Source of the DNA: an uncultured Gemmatimonadales bacterium
GTDB lineage: Bacteria > Gemmatimonadota > Gemmatimonadetes > Gemmatimonadales > Gemmatimonadaceae
Reading direction: 5' to 3'
Length of the DNA stretch: 64,000 nt
Assembly: GCA_963851265.1 (NCBI GenBank)
Contig: CAWKNZ010000005.1
Location: 1 to 64,000 of the forward strand
Shown one piece after another: positions 4,872 to 63,676 of this stretch. Positions within the stretch are counted from its first letter, which is position 1. Every line of letters starts with the position of its first letter. The notes beneath the pieces are model-generated. The model was not told where the DNA came from and did no database searches. It saw only the letters and a program-made list of their open reading frames with translations. A program made the translations under genes and the position numbers.

Positions 4872-4915
4872 GTCACACGCCGGAGCGCCCCCCGCGGGCG
4901 CCCGGCCCCACACTG

Positions 4916-6247
4916 TTAGGCCACGAGCCGCGCCACCGGCCGGGCGAGCCGTGCGCGCACCCGGAGCGCGAGGGCCCCGCCGACCACCGCGAGCCCGGCC
5001 ACGAGCCCCCACCAGAGCCCGCGCGGACCGGCGCCCGCCCGCAGCCCGAGCCACGCCCCGAGCGGGATCCCGAACAGCCAGAACCCGACCACGTTCACCG
5101 CGGCCGGCACGCGCGTGTCGCCGAGCCCGCGCAGCACGCCCAACGATACCACCTGGAGCCCGTCGAACACCTGGAACACCCCCGCGATCGGGATCAGCGC
5201 GGCCGCCAGCGCGCGCACGCCGACGTCGTCGGTGTAGAGCGCGGCGAGCGCGCGCGGCGCCGCGAGCAGTACGCACGCGCTCGCCGCCATGAACCCCACG
5301 CCCACCGCCGTCGCCGCGTACGCCGCCCGGCGCGCCCCGGCCGCGTCGCCCGCTCCCACCGCTCGCCCGACGCGCACGGCCGCCGCCGCCGACACGCCTA
5401 ACGGCACCATGAACGTCAGCGAAGCGAGGCTGAGCGTGGTCTGGTGTGCGGCCATCGGCACCGTGCCGAGCCGCCCCATGAGCAGCCCCACCACGCCGAA
5501 CGCGCCGTACTCGAGCGCCTGCTGCGCCCCGAGCGGCAGCCCGATGCGGAGCGCCGGGGCGAGCGCCGCCGGCCGCCACGCCCCGGGCCGCCACGGGCGC
5601 AGCACCGGGCGCAGCTCGCCGCGGGCCGCGGCGTAGAGCGCGCCCAGCATGAGCCAGCGCGCCGCCGTCGACGCCCACGCGCTCCCGACCGCGCCGAGGG
5701 CGGGCGCGCCCCACCGGCCGTAGACGAGCGCCCAGTTGAGCGCGGCGTTCGCGGCGTTGCCGACCACGATCGCCGCCACGATCGCGCGCGTGTGGCCGTG
5801 CGCCTGTAGCGTCTGCCGCAGCACGACGAAGCCCAGGAACGGCGCGACCCCCGCGAACTGGGCGCGCACGAACGCCCCCGCCGTCGGCACCACGTCGGCC
5901 GGCTGGCCTAACGCACCCAGCACCGCGCCGGCCGGCAGCAGCGCGAGCGCGAGCGGCACGCTGAGCGCGACCGCGAGCACGACCCCGCGCTGCACCGCGC
6001 GCGCCGCGGCCGGCGCGTCCCCCGCGCCCACCGCCTGCGCGACGAGCGGGTCGAGCGCGAACAGCACTCCCTGCCCGAACGCTGTCACGTTGTAGAAGTA
6101 CAAGCTCCCGAGCGCCGCGGCCGCGAGCGCGGCCGGCGACACGTGCCCGACCATCATCGTGTCGACCACGCCCATCAGCATCAGCCCGACCTGCACGAGC
6201 GCCACCGGCAGCGCGAGCCGCAGCATGGCCGCCAGCTCGGCCCTCAC
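4916..6247 (-). CDS. MATE-family efflux transporter (NorM-like)
   Basis: LMGVVDTMMVGHV, FQVFDGLQVV.LGVLRGLGDT; about 12 TM segments. Confidence 0.93.
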   Translation of the reverse strand: MRAELAAMLRLALPVALVQVGLMLMGVVDTMMVGHVSPAALAAAALGSLYFYNVTAFGQGVLFALDPLVAQAVGAGDAPAAARAVQRGVVLAVALSVPLALALLPAGAVLGALGQPADVVPTAGAFVRAQFAGVAPFLGFVVLRQTLQAHGHTRAIVAAIVVGNAANAALNWALVYGRWGAPALGAVGSAWASTAARWLMLGALYAAARGELRPVLRPWRPGAWRPAALAPALRIGLPLGAQQALEYGAFGVVGLLMGRLGTVPMAAHQTTLSLASLTFMVPLGVSAAAAVRVGRAVGAGDAAGARRAAYAATAVGVGFMAASACVLLAAPRALAALYTDDVGVRALAAALIPIAGVFQVFDGLQVVSLGVLRGLGDTRVPAAVNVVGFWLFGIPLGAWLGLRAGAGPRGLWWGLVAGLAVVGGALALRVRARLARPVARLVA

Positions 6248-6274
6248 GGGCGCCTCACGGGCGACTCACCGACG
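6242..6274. repeat. 3 x 11-bp direct repeat at the MATE start
   Basis: CCTCACGGGCG CCTCACGGGCG ACTCACCGACG. Confidence 0.6.
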
Positions 6275-6297
6275 GCGCACCATGACGGCCCCGCGCC

Positions 6298-6798
6298 TCA
6301 CCCGAGCGCCCGGTAGTAGCGGCACCGTTCCGCCGTGATCCCCGCCCCCTGGTAGGCCACCGGCACCGGCACGATCTCGACGAACGCGAATCCCGCGTTC
6401 TCGAGCGTCCGCCGCGACGCCATGTTCTCCGGCCCGCACGTGATCCACAGCTCCGCGAACCCGTGCCGCTCCGCGAACGGGAGCAGCAGCCGCACCGCGC
6501 GGCTCGCGTACCCGTGACCGCGGTGCATCACGTCCACCCCGTATCCGATCTGCCCGTAGTACAGGAGGAACCGCTCGGCGTCGGTCAGCCGGAGCGAGAT
6601 CTGTCCGACCCGCAGGTCGTCGCGCTGCCGGTGGATCGCGAAGGCGTACGACGGGACGATGCCGTACGACGGGTTCGCCCGGTGCAGCTCGGCCACGCGC
6701 AACGTGATCGCGTCATCCTCCAGCGGCCCCGGGTCGACGAAGGGCGCGGTGAACGCCTCGGGGGGCGGGTAGCCGACGGGCGTTGGGCGGCGGCGCAT
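6298..6798 (-). CDS. GNAT-family N-acetyltransferase
   Basis: GQIGYGV..HRGHGYA acetyl-CoA motif, ITCGPENMASRRTLE; ATG 6798 lies 6 nt after TACGCT. Confidence 0.88.
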   Translation of the reverse strand: MRRRPTPVGYPPPEAFTAPFVDPGPLEDDAITLRVAELHRANPSYGIVPSYAFAIHRQRDDLRVGQISLRLTDAERFLLYYGQIGYGVDVMHRGHGYASRAVRLLLPFAERHGFAELWITCGPENMASRRTLENAGFAFVEIVPVPVAYQGAGITAERCRYYRALG

Positions 6799-6827
6799 GC
6801 GGGCAGCGTAGTCGCTACCGTGCCCGG

Positions 6828-7676: not shown

Positions 7677-8870
7677 ATGCCCCACCTCCCACCGCTCCGC
7701 CCTGGTCGCCGCACGCTGCGGCCCGCGCGCCCGTGGCGCGCGCCCGCAGGCACACGCGTGGGCACGATCGCCGTCGCGTGCGCCGTCGCGTGCGCCGGTG
7801 CGTGCGCGACCGCTCCCGCGACGCGCCCCGCACCCGGCACCGCGTCGGCTGTGCTTGCGTCGTCTGCTCCCGTCACGCCCACGGACGTGCGCGCCATCAT
7901 CGGCGTGCTCGCCGCCGACTCGCTCGAAGGGCGGGGCACCGGCGCGCGGGGCTCGATGAGCGCCGCGCGCTACATCGGCGCGTGGTTCGCCGGCGTCGGC
8001 CTCGAGGCCGCGGGCGATTCCGGGTACTTCCAGCGCGTCCCGATGGTCAGCCTCGACTCGGTGGCGCGCCGCAACGGCGCGCGCGCGGTCGAACTGGTGG
8101 ACGGCTTCGCCGCGCGTGACACCTTCCCGGCCGCGCGCCGCCTCACGGGCGGCAACGTCGTCGCGATCCTCCGCGGCGGCGACCCCGCGCTCCGCGACGA
8201 GGCCATCCTCGTCGACGCGCACTACGACCACCTCGGCATCGGCACCCCGGTCGCGGGCGACTCCATCTACAACGGCGCCGACGACGACGCCTCGGGTACG
8301 GCCGCGGTGATGCTCGTCGCGCGGGCGCTCGCGGCCGGGCCGCGTCCCGGGCGCAGCGTCGTCTTCCTCGCCGCGACGGGCGAGGAGGTGGGGCTCGTCG
8401 GCACGCGCTGGTACATCCGCCACCCCGCGTGGCCGCTCGCGCGCACGGTCGGGAACCTCGAGATCGAGATGATCGGCCGCCCCGACTCGCTCGCCGGCGG
8501 CCCGGGGCGCGCGTGGCTCACGGGCTACGAGCGCTCGACGTTAGGCGACGAGCTCCGCGCCGCGGGCGTCCCGCTCGTCGCCGACCCGCGCCCGTCGCAG
8601 AACTTCTTCCAGCGGAGCGACAACATCGCGTACGCGTGGCTCGGCATCCCCGCGCACACGCTCTCGTCGTACAACCTGCACGCCGACTACCACCAGCCGA
8701 CCGACGAGGCCGACCGCGTCGACTACCCGCACATGGCGGCCGTGGTGAACGCGACCGTGCGGGCCGTGCGGCTCATGGCGGATGGGCCACGTCCGGCGTG
8801 GAAGCCCGGGCAGCAGCCGCAGGCGCCGCCCGGCGTCCTCCAGAAGCTCGGGGTGGGGGCGGCGCCATGA
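7677..8870 (+). CDS. M28-family peptidase, probably exported or lipoprotein (start uncertain)
   Basis: AHYDHLG, YNGADDDASG, GEEVGLVG, RSDN, YHQPTD. Confidence 0.9.
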   Translation: MPHLPPLRPGRRTLRPARPWRAPAGTRVGTIAVACAVACAGACATAPATRPAPGTASAVLASSAPVTPTDVRAIIGVLAADSLEGRGTGARGSMSAARYIGAWFAGVGLEAAGDSGYFQRVPMVSLDSVARRNGARAVELVDGFAARDTFPAARRLTGGNVVAILRGGDPALRDEAILVDAHYDHLGIGTPVAGDSIYNGADDDASGTAAVMLVARALAAGPRPGRSVVFLAATGEEVGLVGTRWYIRHPAWPLARTVGNLEIEMIGRPDSLAGGPGRAWLTGYERSTLGDELRAAGVPLVADPRPSQNFFQRSDNIAYAWLGIPAHTLSSYNLHADYHQPTDEADRVDYPHMAAVVNATVRAVRLMADGPRPAWKPGQQPQAPPGVLQKLGVGAAP

Positions 8871-9310: not shown

Positions 9311-9359
9311 CGGGGCCGCCGGACGGCCTAACGGTCCGCCGGCGGGCCGTTGCCGTCCA

Positions 9360-9692: not shown

Positions 9693-10991
9693 CTACACGC
9701 GCCGAACGCCGGGACCACCCGGCGCGCGCCCGATGCTTCCCCGCCCGTACCTCGCGCGGATCGCGTCGAGCGCGCCGGCCAGCTTGCGGTCGCGCTCGGT
9801 CTCGTGCCCCGCGAGCGCCGGCGGCGTGCCCGCCCGCGGCGTTCCCGCCGGCGTGTCGAACATCGAGAGCTGCGCCGCGCTCTCCGCCGTCGGCGCGAGC
9901 ACTTCGAGCCCCACGCCCACGAGCCGGAGCGGCGGCCGCCACCCCATGCGCAGCCGCGCGAACAGCGCGCGCACCACCGGCGCCACCGCCGCGACCGTCT
10001 GCACCGGCTCGGCCAGCGTCTGCGACCCCGACCGCACCGCGAACTCCGCGCTCTTGAGCTTCACGACCACGCGCCGCGCCGTGTGGCCGTCCGCGCGCAG
10101 GTCGTCGACGACGCGCTCGGCGAGGCGCAGCAGCTCGCCCACGAGCACGGCGTCGTCGGCGACGTCGCGCGGGAACGTGTCTTCGCGCGAGTGCGACTTC
10201 GCCCGCGCCCGCGGCGCCACCGGCCGCGCGTCGATCCCCCGCACCCGCTCCCAGAGCCAGCCGCCCCCGCGCGCGCCTAACAGCCCCTCCAGCGCCGCGC
10301 GGTCCGCCGCGCGCGCGTCGTCCACCGTGCGCAGGCCCGCCCGCGCCAGCCGCTCCGCCAGCACCGGCCCCACGCCCGGGATGTCGCCCAGCGCGAAGCG
10401 GCGCATGAACTCCGCCTCGCCGCCGGGCGCGACGACGTGCACGCCCGTCGCGCCGGTGCCCGGCTTGGGCTTCGCGACCTCGACGGCCATCTTCGCGACG
10501 AGCTTGGACGCGCCACCGCCCAACGACACCGAGAACCCGGTCTCGTCGAACACCGCGCGGCGGATGCGGTGCGCGGTCGCCTCGAGCGGCTCGCCGCCGT
10601 ACACCGCCTCGGTGCCGGTGAGGTCGAGGTACGCCTCGTCCACGCTCGCCGGCTCGAAGTCGGGGGTGAAGCGCGCGAGCACCGCGAAGATCGCGCGGCT
10701 CGTGCGCGCCACCACGTCCCGCGGCACGGGCACGACGAGCGCGCCGGGGCAGCGGCGCACCGCCATCGCCGTCGGCATGCCGGCCCGCACGCCGTACGCC
10801 CGCGCCTCGTAGCTCGCCGACGTCACCACCCCGCGCCCCGCGGCCGACCCGCCCACGATGAGCAGCCGCGCGCGCCCCGCGCCCTCGGGGTCGGCCGCGC
10901 GGGCGCACTGCGTGAAGAACGCGTCGCTGTCCGAGAGCAGGATGCGCCGCGCCGCCGTCCCCCCCGCCGCCCGGGACGACACGGCTACCAC
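9693..10991 (-). CDS. dinB: DNA polymerase IV (Y-family); start at 10991 or 10982
   Basis: ILLSDSDAFF, GVVTSASYEARAYGV, SVDEAYLD, AKMA..AKP, IPGVG, RLVGV. Confidence 0.92.
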   Translation of the reverse strand: MVAVSSRAAGGTAARRILLSDSDAFFTQCARAADPEGAGRARLLIVGGSAAGRGVVTSASYEARAYGVRAGMPTAMAVRRCPGALVVPVPRDVVARTSRAIFAVLARFTPDFEPASVDEAYLDLTGTEAVYGGEPLEATAHRIRRAVFDETGFSVSLGGGASKLVAKMAVEVAKPKPGTGATGVHVVAPGGEAEFMRRFALGDIPGVGPVLAERLARAGLRTVDDARAADRAALEGLLGARGGGWLWERVRGIDARPVAPRARAKSHSREDTFPRDVADDAVLVGELLRLAERVVDDLRADGHTARRVVVKLKSAEFAVRSGSQTLAEPVQTVAAVAPVVRALFARLRMGWRPPLRLVGVGLEVLAPTAESAAQLSMFDTPAGTPRAGTPPALAGHETERDRKLAGALDAIRARYGRGSIGRAPGGPGVRRV

Positions 10992-12097
10992 GCCGGAATC
11001 CCCTCCGGCGCCACGCGCCCGCGCGCCGCCACCGGCCAGCGCGTCTCGATCACGTCGTCGCGCACGCCGAACATCAGGTCGTTGAGCGCGACCGCCACGC
11101 ACGCGTGGTTGGGCACCACGCGCACCTGCTCGCCCACCGCCGGGCGCCACGCCGTGTGCGAGAGGTCGAGTATGCCGTGCTCCTCACTCATCCGCGTGAC
11201 CACCACGTCGGGGCGGTCGACGAGCGCGCCGAACCCCTCCAGCGCGTCGCTCGCCTCGCGGCCTAACGCCTTGCTCCCGGCGTCGATCACCGCCTGCCCC
11301 GGCACCGCCGTGCTCACCACCGTGGCGAGCACCGAGAACGCGCACTCGTCCCACTCGCAGGCGCCGATCTCCGCGGTGATGCGGTCGTTGTAGACGTACG
11401 TGCCCGGGCGCACCTCGGTGAGCTGCGGGATCTCGTGCATCCGCCACGCGGCCGGCGTCGAGCCGCCGCTCACGATCCGCGGCGGCAGCCCCACCGCCTC
11501 GAGCGCGCGCACCGCCGCCGCCACGCGACGCGCCACGTCGGCCATCGCGGGCGCCTGGCGCGCGATTGTCTGCCGCACGTGCCCGGGGTAGAATGCCAGC
11601 CCGTCGAAGCGGAGCGCCGTCTGGTCGGCCACGTACGTCGCGAGCGCGACCGCCGCGGCCCCGTCCTGCACCCCCACGCGCCGCATGCCGACGTCGAGCT
11701 CGACGAGCACGCCCACCGTGCGCCCGATCTCCGCGGCCGCCGCGGCGAGCTGCCGCGCCGCGTACTCCGAGTCGAGCGCGACCGTGATCCGCACGCTCGG
11801 CGCGAGGTTCGTCAGCCGCCGCAACGCCGTCATCCCGACGAGCGGGTACGCGACGAGCAGGTCGTCGGTGAGCTCGGCCATCACCTCCGCCTCACGCACG
11901 GTCGCGCACGTGACCCCCGCCGCGCCCAGCCGCAGCTGCTCGGCCGCGATGCGCGGCGACTTGTGCGTCTTCACGTGCGGACGCAGGCCGAAGCCGTGCA
12001 TCGCACAGTAGGCGGCCATGCGGTCGAGGTTGAGCGCGAGCCGGTCGAGGTCGACGAGCGGCGCGGGCGTCTCGAGCTGCTCCAGGTAGAGAGGCAT
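10985..12097 (-). CDS. Alanine-racemase-fold PLP enzyme (D-threonine aldolase / D-serine dehydratase-like)
   Basis: LETP, RPHVKTHK (PLP Lys), GGSTP, EVRPGTYVYND, DAGSKAL, SEEHG, PNHAC. Confidence 0.9.
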   Translation of the reverse strand: MPLYLEQLETPAPLVDLDRLALNLDRMAAYCAMHGFGLRPHVKTHKSPRIAAEQLRLGAAGVTCATVREAEVMAELTDDLLVAYPLVGMTALRRLTNLAPSVRITVALDSEYAARQLAAAAAEIGRTVGVLVELDVGMRRVGVQDGAAAVALATYVADQTALRFDGLAFYPGHVRQTIARQAPAMADVARRVAAAVRALEAVGLPPRIVSGGSTPAAWRMHEIPQLTEVRPGTYVYNDRITAEIGACEWDECAFSVLATVVSTAVPGQAVIDAGSKALGREASDALEGFGALVDRPDVVVTRMSEEHGILDLSHTAWRPAVGEQVRVVPNHACVAVALNDLMFGVRDDVIETRWPVAARGRVAPEGIPAW

Positions 12098-12672: not shown

Positions 12673-13379
12673 GCGGGTCGGGTCCGGCGCCCGGCGCCCC
12701 TCGCGCGCGCCACCTCGAGGTCCCGCGGACGGCGCGCTACTACGCCCTCGGCGGCCCCGCGGCGCGCGCGACGTGGGTCGCGCTGCACGGCTACGGTCAG
12801 CTCGCCGAGTACTTCGCCCGCCACTTCGTCGCCCACGCCGCCGCGCGCCTCGTCGTCGTGCCCGAGGCGCTCAACCGGTTCTACCTCGCCGCGCCCGGCG
12901 ACGCGGCGTCCGGAGGCCCGCGGCGCGTGGGCGCGACGTGGATGACGCGCGAGGACCGGCTCAACGAGATCGGCGACTACGTGCGCTACCTCGACCGCGT
13001 CCTCGACGCGGCGACCGAGGCCGCCGCGGTCGACCTCGCGCGCGCGCCGCTCTGCGTACTCGGCTTCTCGCAGGGCGCGGCCACCGCGTGCCGCTGGGCC
13101 GCGCACCGCCACGCCGACGGGCTCGCGCCGGCCGCACGCTTGGTACTCTGGGGCGGGGGCGTCCCCGAAGACTTCGACCTCGCCGGCGCGGACGGCGACG
13201 CCCTGCGCGCGTCGCGCCTCACGCTCGTCACGGGCGAGGCCGACGAGTTCGCGACGCCCGCGGTGGTGGCGGCCCAGGAGGCGCGGCTGCGCGAGGCGGG
13301 GGTGGGGTACGAGGCGGTGCGCTTCGACGGCGGACACCGGCTGGACGGCCAGACGTTAGGCCGAGTCGTCGCCGGCTGA
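12669..13379 (+). CDS. Alpha/beta hydrolase (phospholipase/carboxylesterase-like)
   Basis: LHGYGQ, GFSQG nucleophile elbow, FDGGH. Confidence 0.88.
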   Translation: MSGSGPAPGAPRARHLEVPRTARYYALGGPAARATWVALHGYGQLAEYFARHFVAHAAARLVVVPEALNRFYLAAPGDAASGGPRRVGATWMTREDRLNEIGDYVRYLDRVLDAATEAAAVDLARAPLCVLGFSQGAATACRWAAHRHADGLAPAARLVLWGGGVPEDFDLAGADGDALRASRLTLVTGEADEFATPAVVAAQEARLREAGVGYEAVRFDGGHRLDGQTLGRVVAG

Positions 13380-14142: not shown

Positions 14143-14181
14143 GCCCGACAAGTTAGGCCGGCTCGCCCGCGGGACCCACCC

Positions 14182-15903
14182 TCACCCCTCGTCGGGCTTC
14201 GCGAGCGCGCTGTTGAGGTAGCTCGGGTCGTCGGTGACCTCGCGTACGACGTACGCCGCGAGCCACGGCGGAAACACCACCGGCGTGTCGGGCGCCGGCA
14301 GCTCCACCTCGGCGAGCACGAGCGTGCGATCGGTGAACTCGTCGATTTCCCACGTCAGCTCCCCCTCGGGCACCGCGTAGCGGCGCTTGCGCACGCGCCG
14401 CGAGCGCGTCGCCGGCCACAGCACGTCGAACAGCTCGGGCGTCGTCTCCTCCTCCACCTCGATGCGCGACACGCCGGCGCCGAGCTTGACCGTGCGCACC
14501 AGGCGCTCGCGCCCGTCGCGCGTGACGCGGCGCACGCGCTCGCGGAGCCGCTCGCCCGGCAGGTAGCCCTGCTCGACCTCGGCCGCCGTCGCCCCGCGCA
14601 GCGCCCGCGGCAGCGCCCGCAGCAGGTACTTGCGCTCGATCTCGACACCCGGCGCCGCGTGCGCCGCATCGAGCACCGCCGCGCACGCGTCCAGTTCGGC
14701 CACGAGCGCCGTCGCCCCGCCGTCGAGCCAGCGCGCGCCGATCTCGCGCGCGAGCGCCTCGCGCTGCGCCCGCGCGCGACGCGCGAGCCCCTGCAACCCG
14801 GGCCGCGGGTCGGGGAGCGCGGGGGCGAGGTCGGCCGCGGCCGCGTCGGGCGCGGCCGCGGGCTCGCCCGATCCGGCCGCCGCGTCACCGTCCGCCGCCG
14901 GCCCGACGGCCGGGGTCCCCGCGGTGGGCGCACCCGCACCCTGTTCGGCCGTATCGGCGTCGGCCGCGGCGAGCGCGCGTTCCATCGTCCCGGCCAACAC
15001 GTCGAGGTCGTGCAGCGTGCCGAACTCGTCCTGCAGGGCGCGCAGTCGCTCGAGCAGCGGCGGCGCGCCGTCGACGAACCGGCCGACCGGGGCGAGCAGG
15101 TAGCGCACGCGCTTGGCCGCGAGCCTCGCCTCGTGCGCCAGCTCCGACTCGACGCCCGCGCCCCCGACGTCGGCCCCCGCCCGCACCGCGGCGAGGCTCG
15201 AGAGGGAGTCGCCTAACACGACGGCGCCCGCGCGCACGCGGCTCGCGAGCGTGCCGGCGAAGGTCGGTGCGGCCGCGGGGTGGTCGTCGGGCAGCGCGAC
15301 GCGCGCCGTGCGCGTGTACACCGGCAGCGCGCGCGCGAGCTTCGCGAGCGTGCGGCCCGCCCGCGGCCCGAACGCGTCCGCCGCCGCGGCCACGGCGTCG
15401 CCGTGCGCCGCGGTGAGCTGCTGCCGCAGGAGCGCCGCGCCGGCGCGCTGCCGCGAGTACAACCGCGACCGCTGCCCCGCGAGCCACGCCAACTGGACTT
15501 CGGCGTCGCGCGCGGGGTTCGTCGCCCGCGCCAGCGCGCGCAACCGCCGCAGCACGGACTTCGGCACGCTCTCCGACAGCTCCGGCGCGAACGCCTTCAG
15601 CGCCACCCGCAAGCGGCGGAGCGCGACGCGGAAGTCGTGCAGCGCCTCCGGGTCCCGCCCGGCCGGCGCGCCGGCGCCCGCCGCGCCCCCGTCGGGCCCG
15701 GCGAGCGCCGCGTGCGCCTCTGCCGCGCGCGTGGTGAGAAACAGCGCGACGAGCCGCGCGCCCTCGGCCGGCGCGCGCGCGAGCAGATCGTCGGGCAGCT
15801 TCGCGAGCGTCGGCGCCGGGGGCCGCGCGTGCGACTCGGCCGCCCCGCTCCCCACGCGCGCGCCGTCCTGGGCCCGCGCGCCCCTGCCCCCGTGCTTCTT
15901 CAC
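14182..15903 (-). CDS. CHAD + CYTH domain protein
   Basis: CHAD motifs LHDFRVALRRLR, HEARLAAKRVRY, LQDEFGTLHDLDV; C-terminal CYTH EIERKYL, EQGYL, RKRRY, WEIDEF, LAEVEL. Confidence 0.88.
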   Translation of the reverse strand: MKKHGGRGARAQDGARVGSGAAESHARPPAPTLAKLPDDLLARAPAEGARLVALFLTTRAAEAHAALAGPDGGAAGAGAPAGRDPEALHDFRVALRRLRVALKAFAPELSESVPKSVLRRLRALARATNPARDAEVQLAWLAGQRSRLYSRQRAGAALLRQQLTAAHGDAVAAAADAFGPRAGRTLAKLARALPVYTRTARVALPDDHPAAAPTFAGTLASRVRAGAVVLGDSLSSLAAVRAGADVGGAGVESELAHEARLAAKRVRYLLAPVGRFVDGAPPLLERLRALQDEFGTLHDLDVLAGTMERALAAADADTAEQGAGAPTAGTPAVGPAADGDAAAGSGEPAAAPDAAAADLAPALPDPRPGLQGLARRARAQREALAREIGARWLDGGATALVAELDACAAVLDAAHAAPGVEIERKYLLRALPRALRGATAAEVEQGYLPGERLRERVRRVTRDGRERLVRTVKLGAGVSRIEVEEETTPELFDVLWPATRSRRVRKRRYAVPEGELTWEIDEFTDRTLVLAEVELPAPDTPVVFPPWLAAYVVREVTDDPSYLNSALAKPDEG

Positions 15904-17313: not shown

Positions 17314-18585
17314 ATGTTCGCGCCCGCTCCGCCGCCGGCGGCAGCGATTCCTTCGCCCGTCGCGTCAGGAGGCGCCGTGTTTCGTGTTCGCTTTGCTCGT
17401 CCCGCCCGTGTCCATTCGGACCCCGGCGCACCCCGTGACTCCGGTCCCCGTTCCGGTCGCGGCATCCGGCTGACGTCCGGCTGGCGCGGCCACCTGGGCC
17501 GCGGCTCGTGCGGCGGCCTCGTCGCGCTGCTGCTCCTGTGTGCACTCGCCGCGTGCGTCGACGCCGTCGCGCCGTCGCCGGCCCCGCAGCCACGTCGCGA
17601 GCTGGGGCTCTGCAACACGGACGGGGTGTGTCTCGAACCCGGGGCCGGCGCGTGTACCACCGCGAGTCCAGACTGCCTCTGTGACCCGGGTGGGGCGTAC
17701 TGCTGCTTGCGCGACGCGTTCTGCGCCCGCGCGCCGGGGCCGGCTTCCGACGCGCTCGCGCCCCAGGTCCGCATCCTCTGGGCGCGCGGGCCTAACGTCG
17801 AGGGCTCGTTCACCACCCTCGCGGGCGAGCGCACGCTCGCCTTCGCCGCCGAGGCGGTGCCGGCGCCGCTCGCGCCGTCGGTGACGTGGTCGGTGGTGGA
17901 CGACCCGGGCGACGCCGTGCGGGCCGTCGCCCCGTCCGGCTCCGCGCCGGCGGGCACGTCGTCCAGCCTCGACGTCTCGCGGCAGACGACCGAGCGGTGG
18001 CGGCTTCCGCACGGCGCACCGCTCAGCGCGCGCGCGCTGGCCTTCCGCGTCGTCGCCGAACTCCCGGCGTCGGGCGGGCGCCGCGCGGCGCGGGACTCGA
18101 TCGTCGTGCGCCAGCGCGAGGTGGACGTGCTGCGGCAGGAGTACGCGGACTTCGGCATCGTGGTGCCGAGTGCGCGCGACGTGGTGACGCCCGCGGACGT
18201 GGCGGGCCGGACGCGCTTCGCGTGGTCGCAGCTGAACCAGGGGGACTACGGCGTGGCAGTCATCACGCCGGTGCTGCTCGCCGGACTCGAAGCGGTGAGC
18301 GCGCAGTCGGACCAACCGCTCGCGCTCACCAGCGTCTTCCGGAACCCCGCGCACCACCGCTTCCACATCAACGTCTCGGGCGGGTCCGCGAAGGCGCTGT
18401 TGAGCCAGCACCAGTACGGGACGGCGGTGGACATCCGCACGCACCGGAACCTCGACACCTGGCACCGGCTGCGAAACATCGCGAAGAGCGCGGGTGCGTG
18501 TGCGGAGCCGCTCACGATCAGCACGAGCGACCACGTGCACGCCGATTGGCGCACGGGCGCGCCGATCTGTCCCAAGGGGTGGTGA
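17314..18585 (+). CDS. Cys-rich putative lipoprotein with C-terminal peptidase M15-type (D-Ala-D-Ala/LAS) domain; true start probably downstream
   Basis: Lipobox LAAC, Cys cluster, LRQEY, TSVFRNP, SQHQYGTAVD (HxxxxxxD), HVH. Confidence 0.75.
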   Translation: MFAPAPPPAAAIPSPVASGGAVFRVRFARPARVHSDPGAPRDSGPRSGRGIRLTSGWRGHLGRGSCGGLVALLLLCALAACVDAVAPSPAPQPRRELGLCNTDGVCLEPGAGACTTASPDCLCDPGGAYCCLRDAFCARAPGPASDALAPQVRILWARGPNVEGSFTTLAGERTLAFAAEAVPAPLAPSVTWSVVDDPGDAVRAVAPSGSAPAGTSSSLDVSRQTTERWRLPHGAPLSARALAFRVVAELPASGGRRAARDSIVVRQREVDVLRQEYADFGIVVPSARDVVTPADVAGRTRFAWSQLNQGDYGVAVITPVLLAGLEAVSAQSDQPLALTSVFRNPAHHRFHINVSGGSAKALLSQHQYGTAVDIRTHRNLDTWHRLRNIAKSAGACAEPLTISTSDHVHADWRTGAPICPKGW

Positions 18586-18665: not shown

Positions 18666-19763
18666 ATGCACACGCATACGGCCGTAGGAACGGCCATTCA
18701 CTCGCCCGGGGATGACCGTCCGCGGCGCGTCCGCCGCGGCGCGTCGATCATCGCCTCGTTAGGCTTTCTACTTCTCGCCGCGCCGGCACGCGGCGTGCTG
18801 CGCGCGCAGCCGGTGCCGGGGTTGTCGGCGAGCGGTCTCGATTCCGTTCGGATGGCGCTCGCATCGGGCGATTGGAACGAGCGACACGGCGGGTTGTCGC
18901 GGTTGAACACTGCCTACACCGGCGCACTGCCGGGATCGGTCGTGCCCTGGGTGGTCGCCCTGTTGGCGCGTGAGGCCGCCGCGACTGACGATCACGAGGA
19001 GGACGAGGATTTCGGGGAGTACCTGGTCGATCTCGTCCTCACCGCGGTGCGAACGGGGGACGTGCGCACCATTCCGGGGATCCTGGCGCTCGACGGGTTG
19101 AGCATGTCGTCGGGGGTGGCCGCGTTCGTCGCATCGCAGGGTCGCTCGGTGATGCCGGCGCTCGATTCGCTTGCCGCGACGCGGGAGGACCGCGCGTCCG
19201 ATGTCGCCGAGGCGTACGCGCTGATGTACGTGCGGCACGGCGCGCGGCTGACGCGTGACGATTCGGCGCAGGTGCTTCGCCGTCTCGTCGCGGCGGCCTC
19301 CCATCCGTCGCCCGCGGTGCGTGCGCAGCTCGCGTACCTGGCCGGGCGGGGTCCGATCACCGAGTTGCTGCCGCTCGTCGCCGAGTTGGCGGTGTCGGAC
19401 ACGGGGCGGATCGACGGGGTGTACGTGGTGCGGCACGACGCCGGGCAGGTGTTGCCGGCGCTGACGCGGGCGCAGGCCGTGTTGACGCCGGGTGCGCTGC
19501 TCGACCGGCTCGTGGTGCTCACCCGTGCCGCGTGTGACGAGGCCGACGGCCGGCTGCGGTGGCACTGTGGCGCGCTCGCGGTTTCGCTCGGGAGTGCGGT
19601 GCGGCTCGTCGCGGTCGGGCAGCCACGGCTCGCCGTGGCCGCGCTGGACGCCTACCGCGGGATCGCGCGCCGGACGGTCGCGGAGGGGTTGGTGCCGCGC
19701 CTGACCGGCGTCACGCTCGAGGGGGCCGCGGCCGGGGTCGTCGACCGGCTGGGCGGTCGTTAG
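18666..19763 (+). CDS. Exported helical-repeat (HEAT-like) protein with FIMAH-like C-terminus
   Basis: Signal-like IIASLGFLLLAAPARGVLRA|Q; HPSPAVRAQLA and VRHDA HEAT-like segments; C-terminal L..A..LV..GQP..A...LDAY...L pattern. Confidence 0.55.
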   Translation: MHTHTAVGTAIHSPGDDRPRRVRRGASIIASLGFLLLAAPARGVLRAQPVPGLSASGLDSVRMALASGDWNERHGGLSRLNTAYTGALPGSVVPWVVALLAREAAATDDHEEDEDFGEYLVDLVLTAVRTGDVRTIPGILALDGLSMSSGVAAFVASQGRSVMPALDSLAATREDRASDVAEAYALMYVRHGARLTRDDSAQVLRRLVAAASHPSPAVRAQLAYLAGRGPITELLPLVAELAVSDTGRIDGVYVVRHDAGQVLPALTRAQAVLTPGALLDRLVVLTRAACDEADGRLRWHCGALAVSLGSAVRLVAVGQPRLAVAALDAYRGIARRTVAEGLVPRLTGVTLEGAAAGVVDRLGGR

Positions 19764-19773
19764 GCGCCGGGCG

Positions 19774-26219: not shown

Positions 26220-26663
26220 ATGCGCACCACCCGCCGCCTCGCCCCCCGCTCGGCCAACCGCAAGGGCTTCACGCTCATCGAACTCCTGATCGTCGTCGTG
26301 ATCATCGGGATCCTCGCCGCCGTCGCGATCCCGAAGTTCTCGAACACGAAGGACAAGGCGTTCGTCGCGAACATGAAGTCGGACCTCAAGAACCTGGTCA
26401 GTGTCCAGGAGTCGTTCTTCTCGGACAGCAACAAGTATGGCCCGAAGACGCCCCTCATCGCCGCGCCGTACAGCTTCACGGTCAGCAACGGGGCCAACAT
26501 CACGGACATCAGCGGCGACAGCACCGGCTGGTCGGCCACGATCACCAACCCGGCCGTCAAGTCGGTCCAGAAGTGCGTGATCTACAGCGGCACGGGCACG
26601 GCCGCGACCACGAACACGCTCGCCGGCGTCACGCTGACCGACGGCGTCCCGGCCTGCAAGTAA
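26220..26663 (+). CDS. pilA: Type IV major pilin
   Basis: KG|FTLIELLIVVVIIGILAAVAIP class III signal; C-terminal Cys pair. Confidence 0.92.
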   Translation: MRTTRRLAPRSANRKGFTLIELLIVVVIIGILAAVAIPKFSNTKDKAFVANMKSDLKNLVSVQESFFSDSNKYGPKTPLIAAPYSFTVSNGANITDISGDSTGWSATITNPAVKSVQKCVIYSGTGTAATTNTLAGVTLTDGVPACK

Positions 26664-26703
26664 GCACGACCCGGCAGTCGCGCGCCGCCTGCCGTTAGTC
26701 ACG

Positions 26704-26741
26704 GCGAAGGGCCCGCCCCCGCGAGGGGGCGGGCCCTTCGC
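26704..26741 (+). terminator. 17-bp perfect hairpin after pilA (terminator or mRNA stabiliser)
   Basis: GCGAAGGGCCCGCCCCC-GCGA-GGGGGCGGGCCCTTCGC; no clear U-tract. Confidence 0.7.
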
Positions 26742-26842
26742 GCGTCCGCCGTCGACGCCGAACGAGCGCCGCGGCAACGATTCGGCCCACGCCGCAACGT
26801 GCCGCCCCACCCGCCCGCGCCCCGCCGCCGTACACTGGCGGC

Positions 26843-29354: not shown

Positions 29355-29568
29355 ACGTCGATCCGCCCTCCCGCACGCCTCGCGGGCAGCGTCCGCCGCC
29401 GCCCACCGCACGCTCCCGCTGTTACCTCGCCCGCGCGCGGCTCGTGTATCGCTCGAACCGTGGCGTGCGCGCGACACCCGGCCACCCGCGGCGGGCGGCG
29501 GCCACGTCGCCCGCGCGCCCCGGCCCGCTGTCCCGCCCGCTCCCGCCTCCGACGACCCCCTCCGCAGC

Positions 29569-31469: not shown

Positions 31470-31496
31470 CGCGCGCGCCGTCCGCCCGCCCCTCCC

Positions 31497-46946: not shown

Positions 46947-48395
<1,449 letters not shown>

Positions 48396-51117: not shown

Positions 51118-52278
<1,161 letters not shown>

Positions 52279-52324: not shown

Positions 52325-52930
52325 ATGACGGCAGGAACGACAGTCACGGGATTCACGGGCTCGGTGCCGGCGACGCTCGCGCGCAACTGGTGGGCGGTGG
52401 CGCTGCGCGGCGGCGCGGCCGTGCTGTTCGGGCTGCTGACGATCGTCAACCCGGGCGCGACCCTCGCCACGCTCGTGCTGCTCTTCGGCGTGTTCGCCCT
52501 CGTGGACGGGGCGCTCAACATCGTGGCGGGGCTCCGGCGCCGCGAAGGGGGCGGCGCGTGGGGCGGGCTGCTGCTCGCCGGCGCGCTCGCCATCACCGTC
52601 GGCGCCCTCACCATCTGGTACCCGCGCAGGACCGCCGCCTTCCTGCTCTACATGGTGGCCGCGTGGGCGATCGTGACCGGGGCGGGGCAGGTCCTCACGG
52701 CGGTGCGGCTCCGCCGCGAGATCCGCGGCGAATGGCTCCTGATCGTGAGCGGGGCGTTGTCGGTGCTGTTCGGCGTCGTGCTGCTCGCGGCACCGATCGC
52801 GGGCGCGCTGGTGATCGCCGTCTGGATCGGCGCGTACGCGCTGTTCGCGGGCGTGCTGCTGCTGGCGCTCGCGTTCCGGCTGCGCGGGTGGGCGCGCGGC
52901 GGGGCGCGCGCGCTCGCCGCGCAACGTTAG
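52325..52930 (+). CDS. HdeD-family membrane protein
   Basis: NWWAVALRG..AVLFG, RLRREIRGEW. Confidence 0.88.
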   Translation: MTAGTTVTGFTGSVPATLARNWWAVALRGGAAVLFGLLTIVNPGATLATLVLLFGVFALVDGALNIVAGLRRREGGGAWGGLLLAGALAITVGALTIWYPRRTAAFLLYMVAAWAIVTGAGQVLTAVRLRREIRGEWLLIVSGALSVLFGVVLLAAPIAGALVIAVWIGAYALFAGVLLLALAFRLRGWARGGARALAAQR

Positions 52931-52940
52931 GCCTACGCGC

Positions 52941-53453: not shown

Positions 53454-55162
<1,709 letters not shown>

Positions 55163-56274: not shown

Positions 56275-56293
56275 CGGGCGTGGCGCCACCGCG

Positions 56294-58003
56294 TTAGGCG
56301 GCCGCGCACGCCGCGCGGCGCTCGCGCGTCCGCCGGTCGCCGGCGCGTCGGTGGCCCGCCTGCCGGTCTCCGCCTGCGCGCGCGAGGAGCGCGGCATGGT
56401 CGGCTGGGTCCAGCGTGGCGAGCGCGGTCGTACCGACGACGCGTGCGGCGTCGCGGTGTGGGGCGCTGGGGTCATCGGCGAGTAGGGCGCCCGGGAGGTT
56501 GGCGCGACGGAGTTCGCAGAGTGCGGCGTCGACTGCCGCGCGCGGGCGGCCGAGCGCACGGGCGGCGCGGTCGGCGACGTCGGTGTCGCCGAGGAGGGCG
56601 CAGAGCGCGGCGACGTGACGCGTGCGCACGGGGAGTGCGGCGATGCGGTCGTGCAGGCGCGCGGCGAGCGCGGCAGGGAGCACGCGCGTGCCTGGGCGAG
56701 CGGCGCACGCGGTCGCGAGCGCGACGACGTCGCCCGGCCGTCCGCCCGCCATGAGCGTGCACCACGCGAGGTCGTCGGCGTGCAGGGCGGTGCCGCGCGT
56801 ACGCGCGGCCGCGCGCGCGAGGGCGGCCGCGTCGTCGTCCGCGAGTACCGGAACGGGTACCACGTGCATCACGCCCCCGGGCGTGCCGAGCGTGGTTGGC
56901 GTCGACGGGACGGCGGCGAAGACGGCGAGGACTGGTGCGCCATCGAGTGCGCGGGCGACTGCCGCGGCGAGCGCGCGTTCGGACGGCGTGGCGCAGCGTG
57001 CGTCGATGGCGAGGAGGAGGGGCGATTCGGCGGCGACGGCGCGTGCGAGTTCTGCGACGGCGATGCCGAGTCGACGGATGGTGGTGTCGCCCGCGGGGAT
57101 CACCGGCGTCGTGGCGAAGCGCCGCACGACGCGTAGCGCGTCGGGGCTGCAGCCGAGCGCGCCCGGTCGGTCGAGCAGCGTGCGGACCGTGGCCGCGAGG
57201 GTGCGTGCCACGCTGGGGAGCCCGGGCGGCGCGCCGCTGACGAGCGAGAACCCGAACGTCGGCGCGGAGCGGGCGAGTTCGGCGATGACGCGGGACACCC
57301 CGGCACCGGCTGCGGCGACGAGGAGCACCGCCGAGCCGTGCCCGTCGTGTGCGGCCGCGGCGTGCGCGCCGAGCGTACGAAGGATGTCGTCGCGCCCGAC
57401 ACACGGCACGGCGTCGGGCGGCGGGGGCGCCTCGTGGACCGCAGTCATGCGAGGCAGAGTCGCGCGGGCGAGCGGGTGTCGCGGATCGAGTTCGAGCAGT
57501 GCGGCGGCGAGGGCGATGCCGTCGCGGTTCGCGGCACGGGCGTCGGCGAGTGCGCGGGCGAGAGTCGCGCGTGCGGCGGCCTCGGTCGTCGCGCGATAGC
57601 GGTCGAGCCAGGCGCGGAACGCGTCGCCGCGCGGGTTCCAGCCGGGGAGGCAGCGTCCCGCGCGTGGCGGCGCGTCGGGTCCGGCGTCACCGTCGCGCGC
57701 GGCCGACAGCGTGAGGTGCGCCGCATCGGCGGCGATCGGGACGCCGAGTCGACGGAGGCGGTAGACGAGTTGGCGGAGCGCGTGGCGGGCCGCGGGTTCG
57801 GGCAGGTCGGGCCAGAGCCACGCCGCGACGCGGGCGCGCGGCATCGGGCGTCCGGCGTCGGCCGCGAGCAGGAGCGCGAGCGAGAACAGGCGGTCACTCG
57901 CGGGGGTGAGCGTGGTCGCGCCGGTCGCGTGCGCGACGACGATGCGGCACTCGCCTAACGTGTGGAGCGTGACGCGCGCGGGCGGGGCGGCGGTGGCGGG
58001 CAT
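56294..58003 (-). CDS. Degenerate SARP/BTAD-like regulator with AAA-like domain
   Basis: LHTLGEC, R.RVAAWLWPD...ARHALRQLVYRLR, ELDP, CVGRD, degenerate Walker A AAAGAGVS. Confidence 0.65.
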   Translation of the reverse strand: MPATAAPPARVTLHTLGECRIVVAHATGATTLTPASDRLFSLALLLAADAGRPMPRARVAAWLWPDLPEPAARHALRQLVYRLRRLGVPIAADAAHLTLSAARDGDAGPDAPPRAGRCLPGWNPRGDAFRAWLDRYRATTEAAARATLARALADARAANRDGIALAAALLELDPRHPLARATLPRMTAVHEAPPPPDAVPCVGRDDILRTLGAHAAAAHDGHGSAVLLVAAAGAGVSRVIAELARSAPTFGFSLVSGAPPGLPSVARTLAATVRTLLDRPGALGCSPDALRVVRRFATTPVIPAGDTTIRRLGIAVAELARAVAAESPLLLAIDARCATPSERALAAAVARALDGAPVLAVFAAVPSTPTTLGTPGGVMHVVPVPVLADDDAAALARAAARTRGTALHADDLAWCTLMAGGRPGDVVALATACAARPGTRVLPAALAARLHDRIAALPVRTRHVAALCALLGDTDVADRAARALGRPRAAVDAALCELRRANLPGALLADDPSAPHRDAARVVGTTALATLDPADHAALLARAGGDRQAGHRRAGDRRTRERRAACAAA

Positions 58004-58112: not shown

Positions 58113-59099
<987 letters not shown>

Positions 59100-61823: not shown

Positions 61824-61987
61824 TCGTTAGGCAGTTCGCGCGGCGGGGCTCGCCCCACCGCCGCGCGGGTACCCGGCCGAGCGGCCGGGGACGTCCGTTG
61901 TCCACATGCCGGACGCCGACGGACGGCGCGGTGACCACGTCGCCGACGCGGGGACGGCACGACCACGCACCACACCCTGACTCGACA

Positions 61988-62278
61988 ATGCTCGCTCTTC
62001 TCCAGGCGGCTCAGACCACCACCGCCACTGTAGGAAACGCCGGTTACGCCGGCGCGTGGGGCCTCATGGGCGCCGGCATCGGCGCCGGCCTCGCCGTCAT
62101 CGGCGCGGGCCTCGGCATCGGCCGCATCGGCGGCCAGGCCGCCGAGGGCATCGCGCGCCAGCCCGAGGCGACCGCCGACATCCGCGGGACCGCGATCGTG
62201 CTCTCCGCGTTCGTCGAGGGCGCGGCGCTGTTCGCGATCGTCGTGTCGCTGCTCATCTCGCTGAAGTTCAGCTTCTAA
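61988..62278 (+). CDS. atpE: F0 subunit c
   Basis: GAGLGIG, ARQPE loop, FVEGAALF. Confidence 0.95.
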   Translation: MLALLQAAQTTTATVGNAGYAGAWGLMGAGIGAGLAVIGAGLGIGRIGGQAAEGIARQPEATADIRGTAIVLSAFVEGAALFAIVVSLLISLKFSF

Positions 62279-62354
62279 GCGTCGCGCTCTTCGTTCGGAC
62301 CTGGCGTCCGGCCGGCTTCGCGGCCGGCCGGCGCCGTCCCCCTTTCTCTTCGCC

Positions 62355-63026
62355 ATGCGCCGTTCTGTCCACCCTGTTGCCGCGCGCGTGATCGCGGCTG
62401 CGCCGTTCGTGGCCGCGCCGTTGTTCGCCGTGCCGTCGCCCGCCGCCGCGCAGGAACTCGCCGAGAAGACGCCCGGCCTCATGTCGCCCAACCCGGGCCT
62501 CATGATCTGGACGCTCGTCATCTTCGGGCTGCTGTTCTTCGTGCTGCGCCGCTACGCGTTCCCGCCGATCCTCGGTGCGGTCGAGGCGCGCGAGCGCGCG
62601 CTCGAAGAGGCGATCGAGGGCGCCAAGCGCGACCGCGCCGCGGCCGCGGAGCTCCTCGCCAAGCAGCAGGCCGCGCTCGACGCGTCGCGCCAGGAGGCGC
62701 AGCAGCTCCTCGCGCAGGCGCACACCGCGGCCGAGCGCACGCGCGCCGACGCGCTGGAGCAGACGCGCGTGCAGCAGGAAGAGCTGCTCGCCCGCGCGCG
62801 CCGCGAGATCGACGCCGACCGCCTGCGCGCGATCGCCGACCTGCGCCGCGAGGCGGTCGACCTCGCGCTCGCCGGCGCGACGAAGGTGATCGGCCGTAGC
62901 CTCGACGACGCGGGCAACCGCCGTCTGGTCGAAGACTTCCTCTCGACGATCCCGGCGCCCCCGTCGCTGGCCGCCGCCGACGGCGCGGCCGGGTCGCAGG
63001 GCGCGGGGGCGCGGGCGCCGCAATGA
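62355..63026 (+). CDS. atpF: F0 subunit b
   Basis: PNPGLMIWTLVIF, AFPPI..EARE, coiled coil. Confidence 0.93.
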   Translation: MRRSVHPVAARVIAAAPFVAAPLFAVPSPAAAQELAEKTPGLMSPNPGLMIWTLVIFGLLFFVLRRYAFPPILGAVEARERALEEAIEGAKRDRAAAAELLAKQQAALDASRQEAQQLLAQAHTAAERTRADALEQTRVQQEELLARARREIDADRLRAIADLRREAVDLALAGATKVIGRSLDDAGNRRLVEDFLSTIPAPPSLAAADGAAGSQGAGARAPQ

Positions 63027-63676
63027 CCGGCCCTGCGGTCGCGTCGTCGGACGGCGCGCAGGTTCGCCCCGCCGGTGCCGACGCGCGCGCCGTGCAGACG
63101 CCGAGCCCCGAGCTCGGCGCCTCGTCGCGCGCGGCCACGGTGTCGCGCAACTACGCCGAGACCCTGCTCCTGCTCGCCCGCCGCGCGGGCGACGTCGCGG
63201 GGTGGGGGCGCATGGCGCAGGAGGTCGTCGACGCGACCAACGCCGACCCGCGTCTGCGCACCTTTCTCGAGTCGCCGCGCATCGCGGCCGAGCACAAGAC
63301 CGAGATGCTCGGGCGCGCGCTGCAGGACCGCTACCCGCGGCTGTTCGTGCGCTTTTTCCAGACCCTCGTGACCAAGGGGCGGCAGCGCCTGCTCGCCGAG
63401 ATCGTGGCCGAGTACCAGGCCCTCGTCGACGAGGCCGAGGGGCGGGTGCACGCGCGCGTGACGCTCGCGACGGCCCCGAGCGAGGCCGACCAGGCGGCGC
63501 TTGCCGCGTCACTCTCGCGGGTGTTAGGCAAACAGGTGGTGCCGCACGTCAGAGTGGACCCCGCGATCCTCGGCGGCGTGATCGTCCGCGTCGGCGACTC
63601 CGTGATGGACGGCTCGGTGCGCCGGCGCCTCGCGACGCTCCGGCGGTCGCTCCTGCGGCAGGCGGCGGTTCGGTAA
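63023..63676 (+). CDS. atpH: F1 subunit delta
   Basis: RNYAETL, VDPAILGGVIVRVGDSVMDGSV. Confidence 0.93.
   Translation: MTGPAVASSDGAQVRPAGADARAVQTPSPELGASSRAATVSRNYAETLLLLARRAGDVAGWGRMAQEVVDATNADPRLRTFLESPRIAAEHKTEMLGRALQDRYPRLFVRFFQTLVTKGRQRLLAEIVAEYQALVDEAEGRVHARVTLATAPSEADQAALAASLSRVLGKQVVPHVRVDPAILGGVIVRVGDSVMDGSVRRRLATLRRSLLRQAAVR

Follow-up and report, generated by a model that had tools for sequence, protein, structure and literature searches.

A dispersed GTTAGGC word in a Gemmatimonadaceae genome: a DNA-level signal identical to the core of integron attC sites, with a tentative likeness to uptake sequences

Introduction

The closest described relatives of the element reported here are the DNA uptake sequences (DUS) and uptake signal sequences (USS) of the Neisseriaceae and Pasteurellaceae, the chromosomal words Chi and FtsK orienting polar sequences (KOPS), the highly iterated palindrome HIP1 of cyanobacteria, and the attC and attI sites of integrons. 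Near-matches form a broad tail around the known uptake sequences, and inverted pairs in terminators are typical of DUS; to our knowledge, only in two proteobacterial families is DNA exchange guided by sequence tags firmly established. DUS and USS come in lineage-specific "dialects", as a preprint describes them (bioRxiv 10.1101/2025.10.24.684340). Such exchange has recently been argued for cyanobacteria also, in a source that presents HIP1 as a hyper-abundant conserved octamer of coding and non-coding DNA with quasi-periodic spacing, a palindrome that the methylases DmtA and DmtC recognise and that raises transformation in a methylation-dependent way (PMC13756078). Here we examine the heptamer GTTAGGC, which reads GCCTAAC on the other strand, in a 64,000-nucleotide stretch of DNA, the window, from an uncultured Gemmatimonadales bacterium (assembly GCA_963851265.1, contig CAWKNZ010000005.1, positions 1 to 64,000), in the whole genome of the window (G000; 12 contigs, 4.60 Mb), and in the genomes of relatives.

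An original prediction, made from the letters of the window alone, had taken the word for a lineage-specific DNA signal and had offered uptake, Chi- or KOPS-like, HIP1-like and methylation roles for it. The DNA-level and lineage-specific parts of that interpretation stand, while polarity of the Chi or KOPS kind was not seen around a dif-like site, no conserved enzyme of methylation or VSP-type repair was found among the families searched, and the identity of the word with the integron attC/attI core had been missed. In the literature we found no paper on this word in such a role, on uptake sequences in this phylum, or on uptake sequences joined with the integron core. New in this report are the lack of polarity, the repulsion between sites, the coupling to G+C content at third codon positions (GC3), the retention of sites together with fast turnover, a genus that uses CGTTWGGC, the patchy distribution, and the flanks shared with the attC R box.

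Results

The word is a DNA-level signal spread over the genome

GTTAGGC has 1762 copies in G000, where Markov models of order 0 to 3 predict 396, 160, 96 and 126, and it is the top 7-mer of the genome by z-score; its enrichment is thereby a property of the 4.60-Mb assembly and not of the window only. The strands are equal, with 708 forward and 688 reverse copies of CGTTAGGC. The edges of the word are sharp, since G precedes 98% of all TTAGGC (1762/1794) and C ends 95% of all GTTAGG (1762/1848). The base at -1 is C in 79% and T in 14% of copies, the base following the word is G in 54%, A in 22%, C in 19% and T in 5%, and beyond these immediate flanks there is codon periodicity only. The consensus of the signal is YGTTAGGCR, that is, (C/T)GTTAGGC(G/A). 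The variants GCTAGGC and CTTAGGC are depleted to 0.16 and 0.15 times expectation. Independently of the word, the tetramer CTAG is about eightfold under-represented in G000 in any context (1108 copies vs 8834 expected from dinucleotides).

Genes were called with a program of our own, GC3-based and crude, which gave 3533 genes covering 85% of the genome. The copies comprise 980 G-TTA-GGC (Leu-Gly), 188 G-CCT-AAC, 64 GC-CTA-AC and 25 GTT-AGG-C readings, 182 copies in stop codons and 323 in spacers. Expressed as the occupancy of synonymous opportunities, this is 9.3% for x-Leu-Gly, 13.5% for antisense x-Pro-Asn, 3.6% for GC-CTA-AC and 0.76% for GTT-AGG-C. TTA codons stand mostly before GGC (988 of 1258), a point that had been suggested as a check, and 1165 of the 1258 are preceded by G; a tRNA-Leu(UAA) gene is present. 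The word ends 198 genes, as GCC-TAA-C at 117 of the 407 TAA stops and as GT-TAG-GC at 81 of the 713 TAG stops. Spacers between convergent genes have the highest density (0.92/kb, 2.4 times the 0.38/kb of the genome as a whole), and those between divergent genes have the lowest (0.34/kb).

A translation-level reading, in which a TTA-GGC codon pair would be the target, was rejected, because the antisense, stop-codon and spacer copies have equal or higher occupancy. The word occupies all four stop-free frames on both strands at comparable levels, and stop codons and spacers as well, in agreement with the claim made from the window that the DNA and not the protein is the target. It is a DNA-level signal under selection or drive, not a protein-level one.

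Distribution and variants among relatives

A genome was counted as enriched, or word-rich, if CGTTAGGC exceeded 2 times its control, the word read backwards. Thirteen of 41 relatives are enriched, namely all 5 members of the genus of G000, G012 (6360 copies), G008, G017, G018, G023, G036, G038 and G040. Across 401 genomes sampled evenly from the phylum, 16 are enriched, of which 13 are among the 95 genomes of the window's own family (G000 included) and 3 among the 166 of a second family; none was found among 5 genomes of a third family and 135 of nine further families. Four of the genomes counted, the word-poor G011, G085, G124 and G203, are unpublished. The predicted lineage-specific character of the signal is thus borne out, in a patchy form seen only in the window's own order. 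Within one genus, three species have about 3500-4100 copies and the fourth has 66. Rich and poor genomes stand side by side in two genera, G240, G297 and G401 against G293 in one, and G173, G211 and G363 against G152 and G172 in the other.

The word and its flanks are the same in genomes from 62.6% to 74.5% GC. Variation occurs in the word itself: G008 uses CGTTWGGC, with 925 copies of CGTTTGGC against a control of 110 beside 605 of CGTTAGGC, which is unique among the 41 genomes, and G012 also enriches GTTAGGT (33 vs 3.0 expected), making its word CGTTAGGY. A substitute hyper-abundant word was sought in 100-kb samples of the word-poor genomes G006, G021, G024 and G035, and none was found. The signal met in G035 comes from short tandem heptamer arrays of GGTAAGA/GGTGAGA with 3-8 units, at several places of its contig C4 (50-70 kb and 150-170 kb) and unrelated to the word. 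TopA was tried as a proxy of relatedness and was unusable, the identities suggesting two gene forms, which are likely paralogues.

No replication polarity was seen around a dif-like site

GC skew and skewed 8-mers gave no usable replichore signal in G000, and a dif-like site was used instead. It is the only one of the assembly (C2:1368947-1368976, AT-rich inverted arms around a 6-bp centre), and it coincides exactly with a switch in gene orientation. A strong gene-strand bias is confined to about 0.5 Mb on either side of it. On the 1.83-Mb contig C2, Leu-Gly occupancy is 8.9% in leading and 9.4% in lagging genes, and the spacer sites around the dif-like site are divided 44:43 by strand. Spacer sites between co-directional genes are likewise balanced, with 92 in gene direction and 90 against it. 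Within about 0.5 Mb of the dif-like site, leading genes have an occupancy of 9.4% vs 6.7% (p 0.06). The orientation of the word tracks gene orientation (rho 0.55) and not GC skew. With these occupancies, the excess of one strand in the raw counts close to the terminus comes down to gene orientation.

These figures bear on the Chi or KOPS option, in which the word would be a polar chromosome signal. Like Chi and KOPS, the word is short, asymmetric and over-represented on the chromosome, an AddAB-like gene pair lies at C3:244.5-249 kb, and the slight leading-strand excess near the dif-like site could be taken in the same sense. The word differs from them in having no polarity around the dif-like site, either over the whole contig or in its spacers, in following the genes, and in an enrichment, about 14-fold, that far exceeds that of Chi; a search for RecC found none. 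We regard a polar signal as close to refuted, with a minimal residual chance.

Close sites repel each other, and single sites are retained and replaced

Spacing was compared with a null that keeps the number of sites in each class and draws their places from all synonymous opportunities, stop codons and spacer positions. There are 78 neighbours less than 300 bp apart, vs 195 ± 11 in the null, and 193 less than 500 bp apart, vs 312, the deficit sitting below 300 bp. Pairs of two Leu-Gly sites within 400 bp are too few (38 vs 92), mixed pairs are also deficient, and pairs in the same gene number 27 vs 107. Rare-codon clustering may add to the same-gene deficit, and as its sole cause it was rejected, given that pairs of a coding site with a spacer or stop site are too few as well (21 vs 48, z -3.9). 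Pairs with no coding member have a weak deficit (27 vs 35) in a class that includes attC-like pairs. The same short-range deficit is found in G012 at about 4 times the density (coefficient of variation of spacing 0.8), and a trend in the same direction is seen in G001 and G004. Mutation acting on each site by itself would not give rise to such repulsion. In this spacing, more even than chance, and in its presence in coding and non-coding DNA, the word resembles HIP1.

Retention was followed in two congeners, G004 and G001 (about 83% identical), whose syntenic DNA was aligned to contig C5 of G000. The G-TTA-GGC sites are kept at 76% in G004, 62% in G001 and 55% in both (n=29), vs 37%, 33% and 18.5% for G-CTC-GGC, taken as the synonymous comparison (n=81). 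Sites of the word are hence conserved in orthologues, as had been suggested as a check, 2-3 times better than synonymous alternatives, with fast turnover: of 96 sites aligned three ways, 17 are in three genomes, 23 in two and 56 in a single species. The orthologous state is mostly another spelling of Leu-Gly, GCTCGGC, GCTGGGC or GTTGGGC. Given the retention and the many species-specific sites, the word is therefore kept and continually re-created in each lineage. Imported tracts around the species-specific sites were considered and rejected, as the carrier genome shows no extra divergence in the flanks when set against the other two.

Coupling to GC3 and a 45-kb stretch with no copy

In the genes of G000, the word becomes about five times denser as GC3 increases, going from 0.11/kb where GC3 is below 0.85 to 0.51/kb where it is 0.96 and above, and along the same range Leu-Gly occupancy goes from 1.4% to 15.3%. 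TTA codons outside the word fall tenfold with rising GC3, from 9.75 to 0.93 per 1000 Leu. For the 342 genes with an alignment to G004, rho is 0.46 between density and GC3 and 0.31 between density and third-position identity.

The largest gap between copies is 45 kb long, lies outside the window at C1:182877-227963, and is no mobile island, since it holds mnmG, parA, parB and mnmE. Its orthologous DNA is nearly empty in G004 (36 kb, 2 sites) and G001 (28 kb, 1 site), and its counterpart carries the word in G012 and G008. The stretch has normal G+C, a GC3 of 0.907, and a third-position identity of 0.64 vs 0.72 elsewhere, that is, a higher synonymous divergence; the lower GC3 is shared by all three species. 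It follows the general rule for core genes because its GC3 is low, and an origin-specific exclusion is not read from it because the stretch is filled in G012 and G008; a ParB zone was likewise rejected. A recurrent palindrome was sought in the stretch and none was found. In G012 (C51) and G019 (C4), parB has a canonical parS-like palindrome no more than 2 kb away. No parS-like site with up to 2 mismatches was found in the parB regions of G001, G004 and G008, and the whole G000 assembly has only two 2-mismatch matches, on contigs C5 and C9 away from parB. The ParB of G000, G001, G004 and G008 may use a diverged site.

The spacing and this stretch together are where a chromosomal binding site for an abundant cytoplasmic protein, architectural or related to tyrosine recombinases, has to be weighed. 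Selection would then be weak at each site, and a site near another would be superfluous or would be hindered sterically. The repulsion range fixed below 300 bp at two very different densities is what such a protein would produce, the retention of individual sites agrees with it, and so do the likeness at nine positions to the R-box arm bound by integron integrases (see below) and the 45-kb mnmG-parA-parB-mnmE stretch, siteless in G000 and almost so in G004 and G001. But that stretch obeys the GC3 rule and is not empty in G012 or G008, the fivefold GC3 gradient is not predicted, and no candidate protein tracks the trait, so that we consider this explanation rather doubtful.

Biased repair and methylation

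The coupling to GC3 is the usual mark of GC-biased gene conversion, and VSP (very short patch) repair is known to shape CCWGG words. The word could in the same manner be a by-product of recombination with no signalling role, near-matches being converted to it by a sequence-specific step of heteroduplex or mismatch processing. The strength of the GC3 coupling, with other TTA codons moving the opposite way, speaks for such a process, as do the depletion of GCTAGGC and CTTAGGC beside a 2.2-fold excess of GTTGGGC and the species-specific sites that lie in DNA with no extra flank divergence. A per-site process predicts independent sites, however, and close pairs are 2.5-fold too few even where one partner costs no sense codon. 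CTAG, moreover, is depleted in every context. The enzymes do not fit either: Vsr is found in 4 of the 41 genomes, none of them word-rich, C5 (PF00145) and Dam-type (PF02086) methylases are found in 0 of 5 rich genomes, and the N6/N4 methylase families PF01555 and PF02384 have no match in G001 (97% complete) and fragments only in G000, leaving G001 with none of the four. We judge biased conversion to be a rather unlikely source of the word.

The same searches bear on the methylation option. HIP1 provides the precedent of a methylase-recognised word that boosts transformation (PMC13756078). The word differs from HIP1 in being asymmetric, not palindromic, and a search for the four families above gave no conserved methylase in the rich genomes. 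A target of a DNA methyltransferase or restriction-modification system of the HIP1 kind is, on these results, very improbable.

Identity with the integron attC core

In the word-poor genomes, the few hits lie on one strand and are clustered every 500-600 bp. They are attC sites, in which GCCTAAC is R'' and GTTAGGC is R', and two of the arrays adjoin an intI match (G025:C26 and G027:C80). Among 46 attC-like units of word-poor relatives, C stands at -1 of R' in 44 and A follows R'' in 44, which means T at -1 when the other strand is read; R' is followed by G in 24, A in 11, C in 8 and T in 3. The dispersed copies have the same preferences. G000 has 9 attC-like pairs of its own with the same core, and only 9 of its 1762 copies are in such pairs. 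Its intI (C6:3005-6230) is split in two by a gene for an 890-aa serine recombinase with Resolvase, Recombinase and zinc-ribbon domains, and an attC-like element lies at C6:1592-1708.

The presence of intI is unrelated to word-richness. IntI scores over the cut-off in 25 of the 41 genomes, many of them poor, including two over it and one just below in the poor G293, and it is broken or was not found in the rich G012, G001, G008, G018 and G401. These counts tell on direct integron biology, with the dispersed copies as docking or secondary sites of IntI or as raw material for new cassettes. The word is identical in seven letters to the R' core, its complement is the R'' core, both in the 46 units and in the elements of G000 itself, the preferences at -1 and +7 agree, and 198 genes end in the word. 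The dispersed copies differ from attC in being single, mostly in housekeeping genes, with neither the paired R''-L''...L'-R' structure nor cassette spacing, and not adjoining intI. About 70% of the sites are intragenic, where insertion of a cassette would harm, very few are in attC-like pairs, and the state of IntI runs against the trait in both directions, intact in many poor genomes and broken, missing from the search results or, as in G000, split in rich ones. We find a direct role of integrons highly doubtful.

A more indirect relation is that the reader of the word shares the recognition code of integron integrases, the word being nine positions of the attC R box, Y, the core, and then G>A>C>>T. 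On this likeness of letters we would put it forward as an unlikely proposal. In a first version, word-rich lineages would have tuned their DNA-exchange machinery to the universal integron core. They would then import by preference cassette arrays, where copies of the word are about 300 bp apart, and as a side effect copies would build up in the genomes of these lineages themselves. In a second version, a DNA-binding module of the tyrosine-recombinase type would have been recruited as a genome-wide reader. Either version, if true, would join uptake "self" tags and integron cassette traffic.

The sites of the window and the type IV pilus locus

All 29 copies that had been read by eye in the window are present, 17 as GTTAGGC on the plus strand and 12 as GCCTAAC. 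Shuffles of the window that preserve dinucleotides yield 2.05 ± 1.58 copies (maximum 7 in 100 shuffles). The base at -1 is C in 21, T in 5, G in 2 and A in 1, in keeping with the remark that C or T usually precedes the word, and the impression of fewer than ten TTAG/CTAA tetramers outside it was accurate, as 29 of the 36 in the window are inside the word and 7 are outside. The window has a G+C of 72-78% and ordinary housekeeping content (dinB-like, a type IV pilus locus, aroC/aroK, topA, xerC-like, hslVU, gcvT, ATP synthase). Our gene caller gives 16 G-TTA-GGC, 3 CCT-AAC, 1 CTA-AC, 4 stop-codon and 5 intergenic sites. The earlier division had been 17, 3, 2, 4 and 3; Pro-Asn (3) and stop codons (4) agree, and Leu-Gly (16), Leu-Thr (1) and spacer (5) differ within the error margin of gene calling. 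The sites are listed below; "kept" means that the exact word is at the orthologous place in the aligned DNA of the named congener.

Site 1, 4915..4921, plus: on the gene strand GCC-TAA-C, the TAA stop of a MatE gene (4916-6247, minus strand)
Site 2, 5396..5402, minus: G-TTA-GGC (Leu-Gly) in the MatE gene; kept in G004
Site 3, 5906..5912, minus: Leu-Gly in the MatE gene; G004 counterpart GTTCGGC
Site 4, 8540..8546, plus: Leu-Gly in a peptidase M28 gene; kept in G001
Site 5, 9326..9332, minus: spacer between genes with ends at 9310 and 9360 (own gene caller)
Site 6, 10275..10281, minus: Leu-Gly in a dinB-like (IMS family) gene; orthologous 7-mers GCTCGGC (G004) and GTTGGGC (G001)
Site 7, 11261..11267, minus: Leu-Gly in an alanine-racemase-N / D-serine-dehydratase-like gene; kept in G004
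Site 8, 13355..13361, plus: Leu-Gly close to the end of the open reading frame (ORF) 12669-13379; kept in G004
Site 9, 14152..14158, plus: spacer between genes 13780-14151 and 14182-15903; G004 counterpart GGTAGGC
Site 10, 15211..15217, minus: Leu-Gly in a CHAD-domain gene; kept in G004; G001 counterpart GTTGGGC
Site 11, 17790..17796, minus: antisense, the gene reading G-CCT-AAC (Pro-Asn), in a peptidase M15_3 gene
Site 12, 18758..18764, plus: intergenic
Site 13, 19759..19765, plus: GT-TAG-GC, the TAG stop of ORF 18942-19763
Site 14, 22235..22241, plus: antisense, the gene reading GC-CTA-AC (Leu-Thr), in a CNNM/CorC gene
Site 15, 26859..26865, minus: spacer (own caller), about 200 bp past the pilin gene (26220-26663) with which the type IV pilus locus begins
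Site 16, 29781..29787, minus: antisense Pro-Asn in pilM
Site 17, 34910..34916, plus: Leu-Gly at the start of an 812-aa ORF downstream of pilQ
Site 18, 42580..42586, plus: Leu-Gly in topA; kept in G004 and G001
Site 19, 44761..44767, plus: Leu-Gly in the final codons of a GIDA-family (trmFO-like) gene, with xerC-like 44776-45723 directly after
Site 20, 47807..47813, plus: Leu-Gly in hslU; kept in G004 and G001
Site 21, 51633..51639, minus: antisense Pro-Asn in gcvT; kept in G001
Site 22, 52137..52143, plus: Leu-Gly in gcvT; kept in G004 and G001
Site 23, 52926..52932, plus: GT-TAG-GC, the stop of a DUF308 gene; kept in G004
Site 24, 54289..54295, plus: Leu-Gly in a sigma-54 activator gene; kept in G001; G004 counterpart GCTGGGC
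Site 25, 56293..56299, plus: on the gene strand GCC-TAA-C, the TAA stop of gene 56294-58003 (minus strand)
Site 26, 57953..57959, minus: Leu-Gly in gene 56294-58003
Site 27, 58977..58983, minus: Leu-Gly in a MoxR-type AAA gene; kept in G004
Site 28, 61826..61832, plus: spacer, 3 bp past the ATP synthase A-chain gene
Site 29, 63523..63529, plus: Leu-Gly in atpH (OSCP); kept in G004; G001 counterpart GTTGGGC
Type IV pilus locus (context, no part of the word), 26220..34872, plus: pilin, 3 pilin-like ORFs, pilM, pilN, pilO, an unnamed ORF, pilQ secretin

The three ORFs 3' of the pilin gene (window 26843-29354) begin with hydrophobic N-termini like those of pilins and match no Pfam family. They may encode minor pilins of this locus, and such minor-pilin-like genes would be candidate DNA receptor genes. 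The 812-aa ORF downstream of pilQ belongs to no family.

Nearly all of the order has type IV pilus and competence genes, ComEC being found in 40, DprA in 38 and ComEA-type HHH_3 in 40 of the 41 genomes; the two rich genomes with no DprA match are 79% and 90% complete. The genes are permissive, not discriminating.

Discussion

Uptake, one of the roles originally offered for the word, remains the best analogy, even though neither the pilus genes, which had been named as making it testable, nor the competence genes discriminate rich from poor genomes. The likeness to DUS and USS is that of a single short exact word with hundreds to thousands of copies, equal on the strands at about 1 per 1-3 kb, placed within genes in the least costly frames and in 3' spacers, retained between species, with lineage variants, and with competence genes present. 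The differences are that the word has 7-9 informative positions only, near-matches that are not enriched, few terminator pairs, and no pilin of the ComP_DUS type over the cut-off, and that it belongs to another phylum and is identical to the integron core.

A DNA-level word with no polarity, with retention and rapid gain, close-site repulsion, GC3 coupling and lineage variants requires a sequence-specific DNA reader whose benefit saturates per few hundred bp, and a force that grows with whatever raises GC3. The explanation that we tentatively favour is a self tag similar to uptake sequences and maintained by a drive linked to recombination, and by analogy with the described systems we infer that a protein reader exists and that the favoured step would be uptake or recombination. 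A sequence-specific protein would read YGTTAGGCR in the DNA itself, and the word would be kept and re-created by a force acting per stretch of DNA and coupled to recombination. Word-bearing fragments would be favoured at uptake or in recombination among relatives, as in the Neisseriaceae and Pasteurellaceae, and in this model the word would therefore spread and be retained wherever the protein code tolerates it.

Several results weigh against the self tag. The one-letter variants of the word in G000 are at or under expectation, with the exception of GTTGGGC noted above. The repulsion range is about unchanged at fourfold density, so a physical footprint fits it equally well as an effect of fragment size. 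A link of density to lower synonymous divergence was tried and is gone once GC3 is controlled (partial r 0.006 in the 342 genes), and GC3 could stand for residence time or codon bias and not for recombination. Competence genes explain nothing of the patchiness, because they are equally present in word-poor relatives. The ComP_DUS-type pilin (PF16732) was over the cut-off in 0 of the 5 genomes searched, by a profile that covers that type only. Inverted pairs of the kind found in terminators are rare, with 17 opposite-orientation neighbour pairs under 150 bp among 1750 neighbour pairs.

Were the self-tag explanation to hold, a word analogous to uptake sequences in a soil order rich in uncultured members would show "self" marking to be far wider than thought. 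The mark would override a very strong codon bias, and it would be gained and lost between close relatives. Contrasts such as that within one genus, between species with thousands of copies and one with 66, put the reader protein within reach of a direct search. As the word is also the integron core, cassette traffic and self-recognition might even share a single code.

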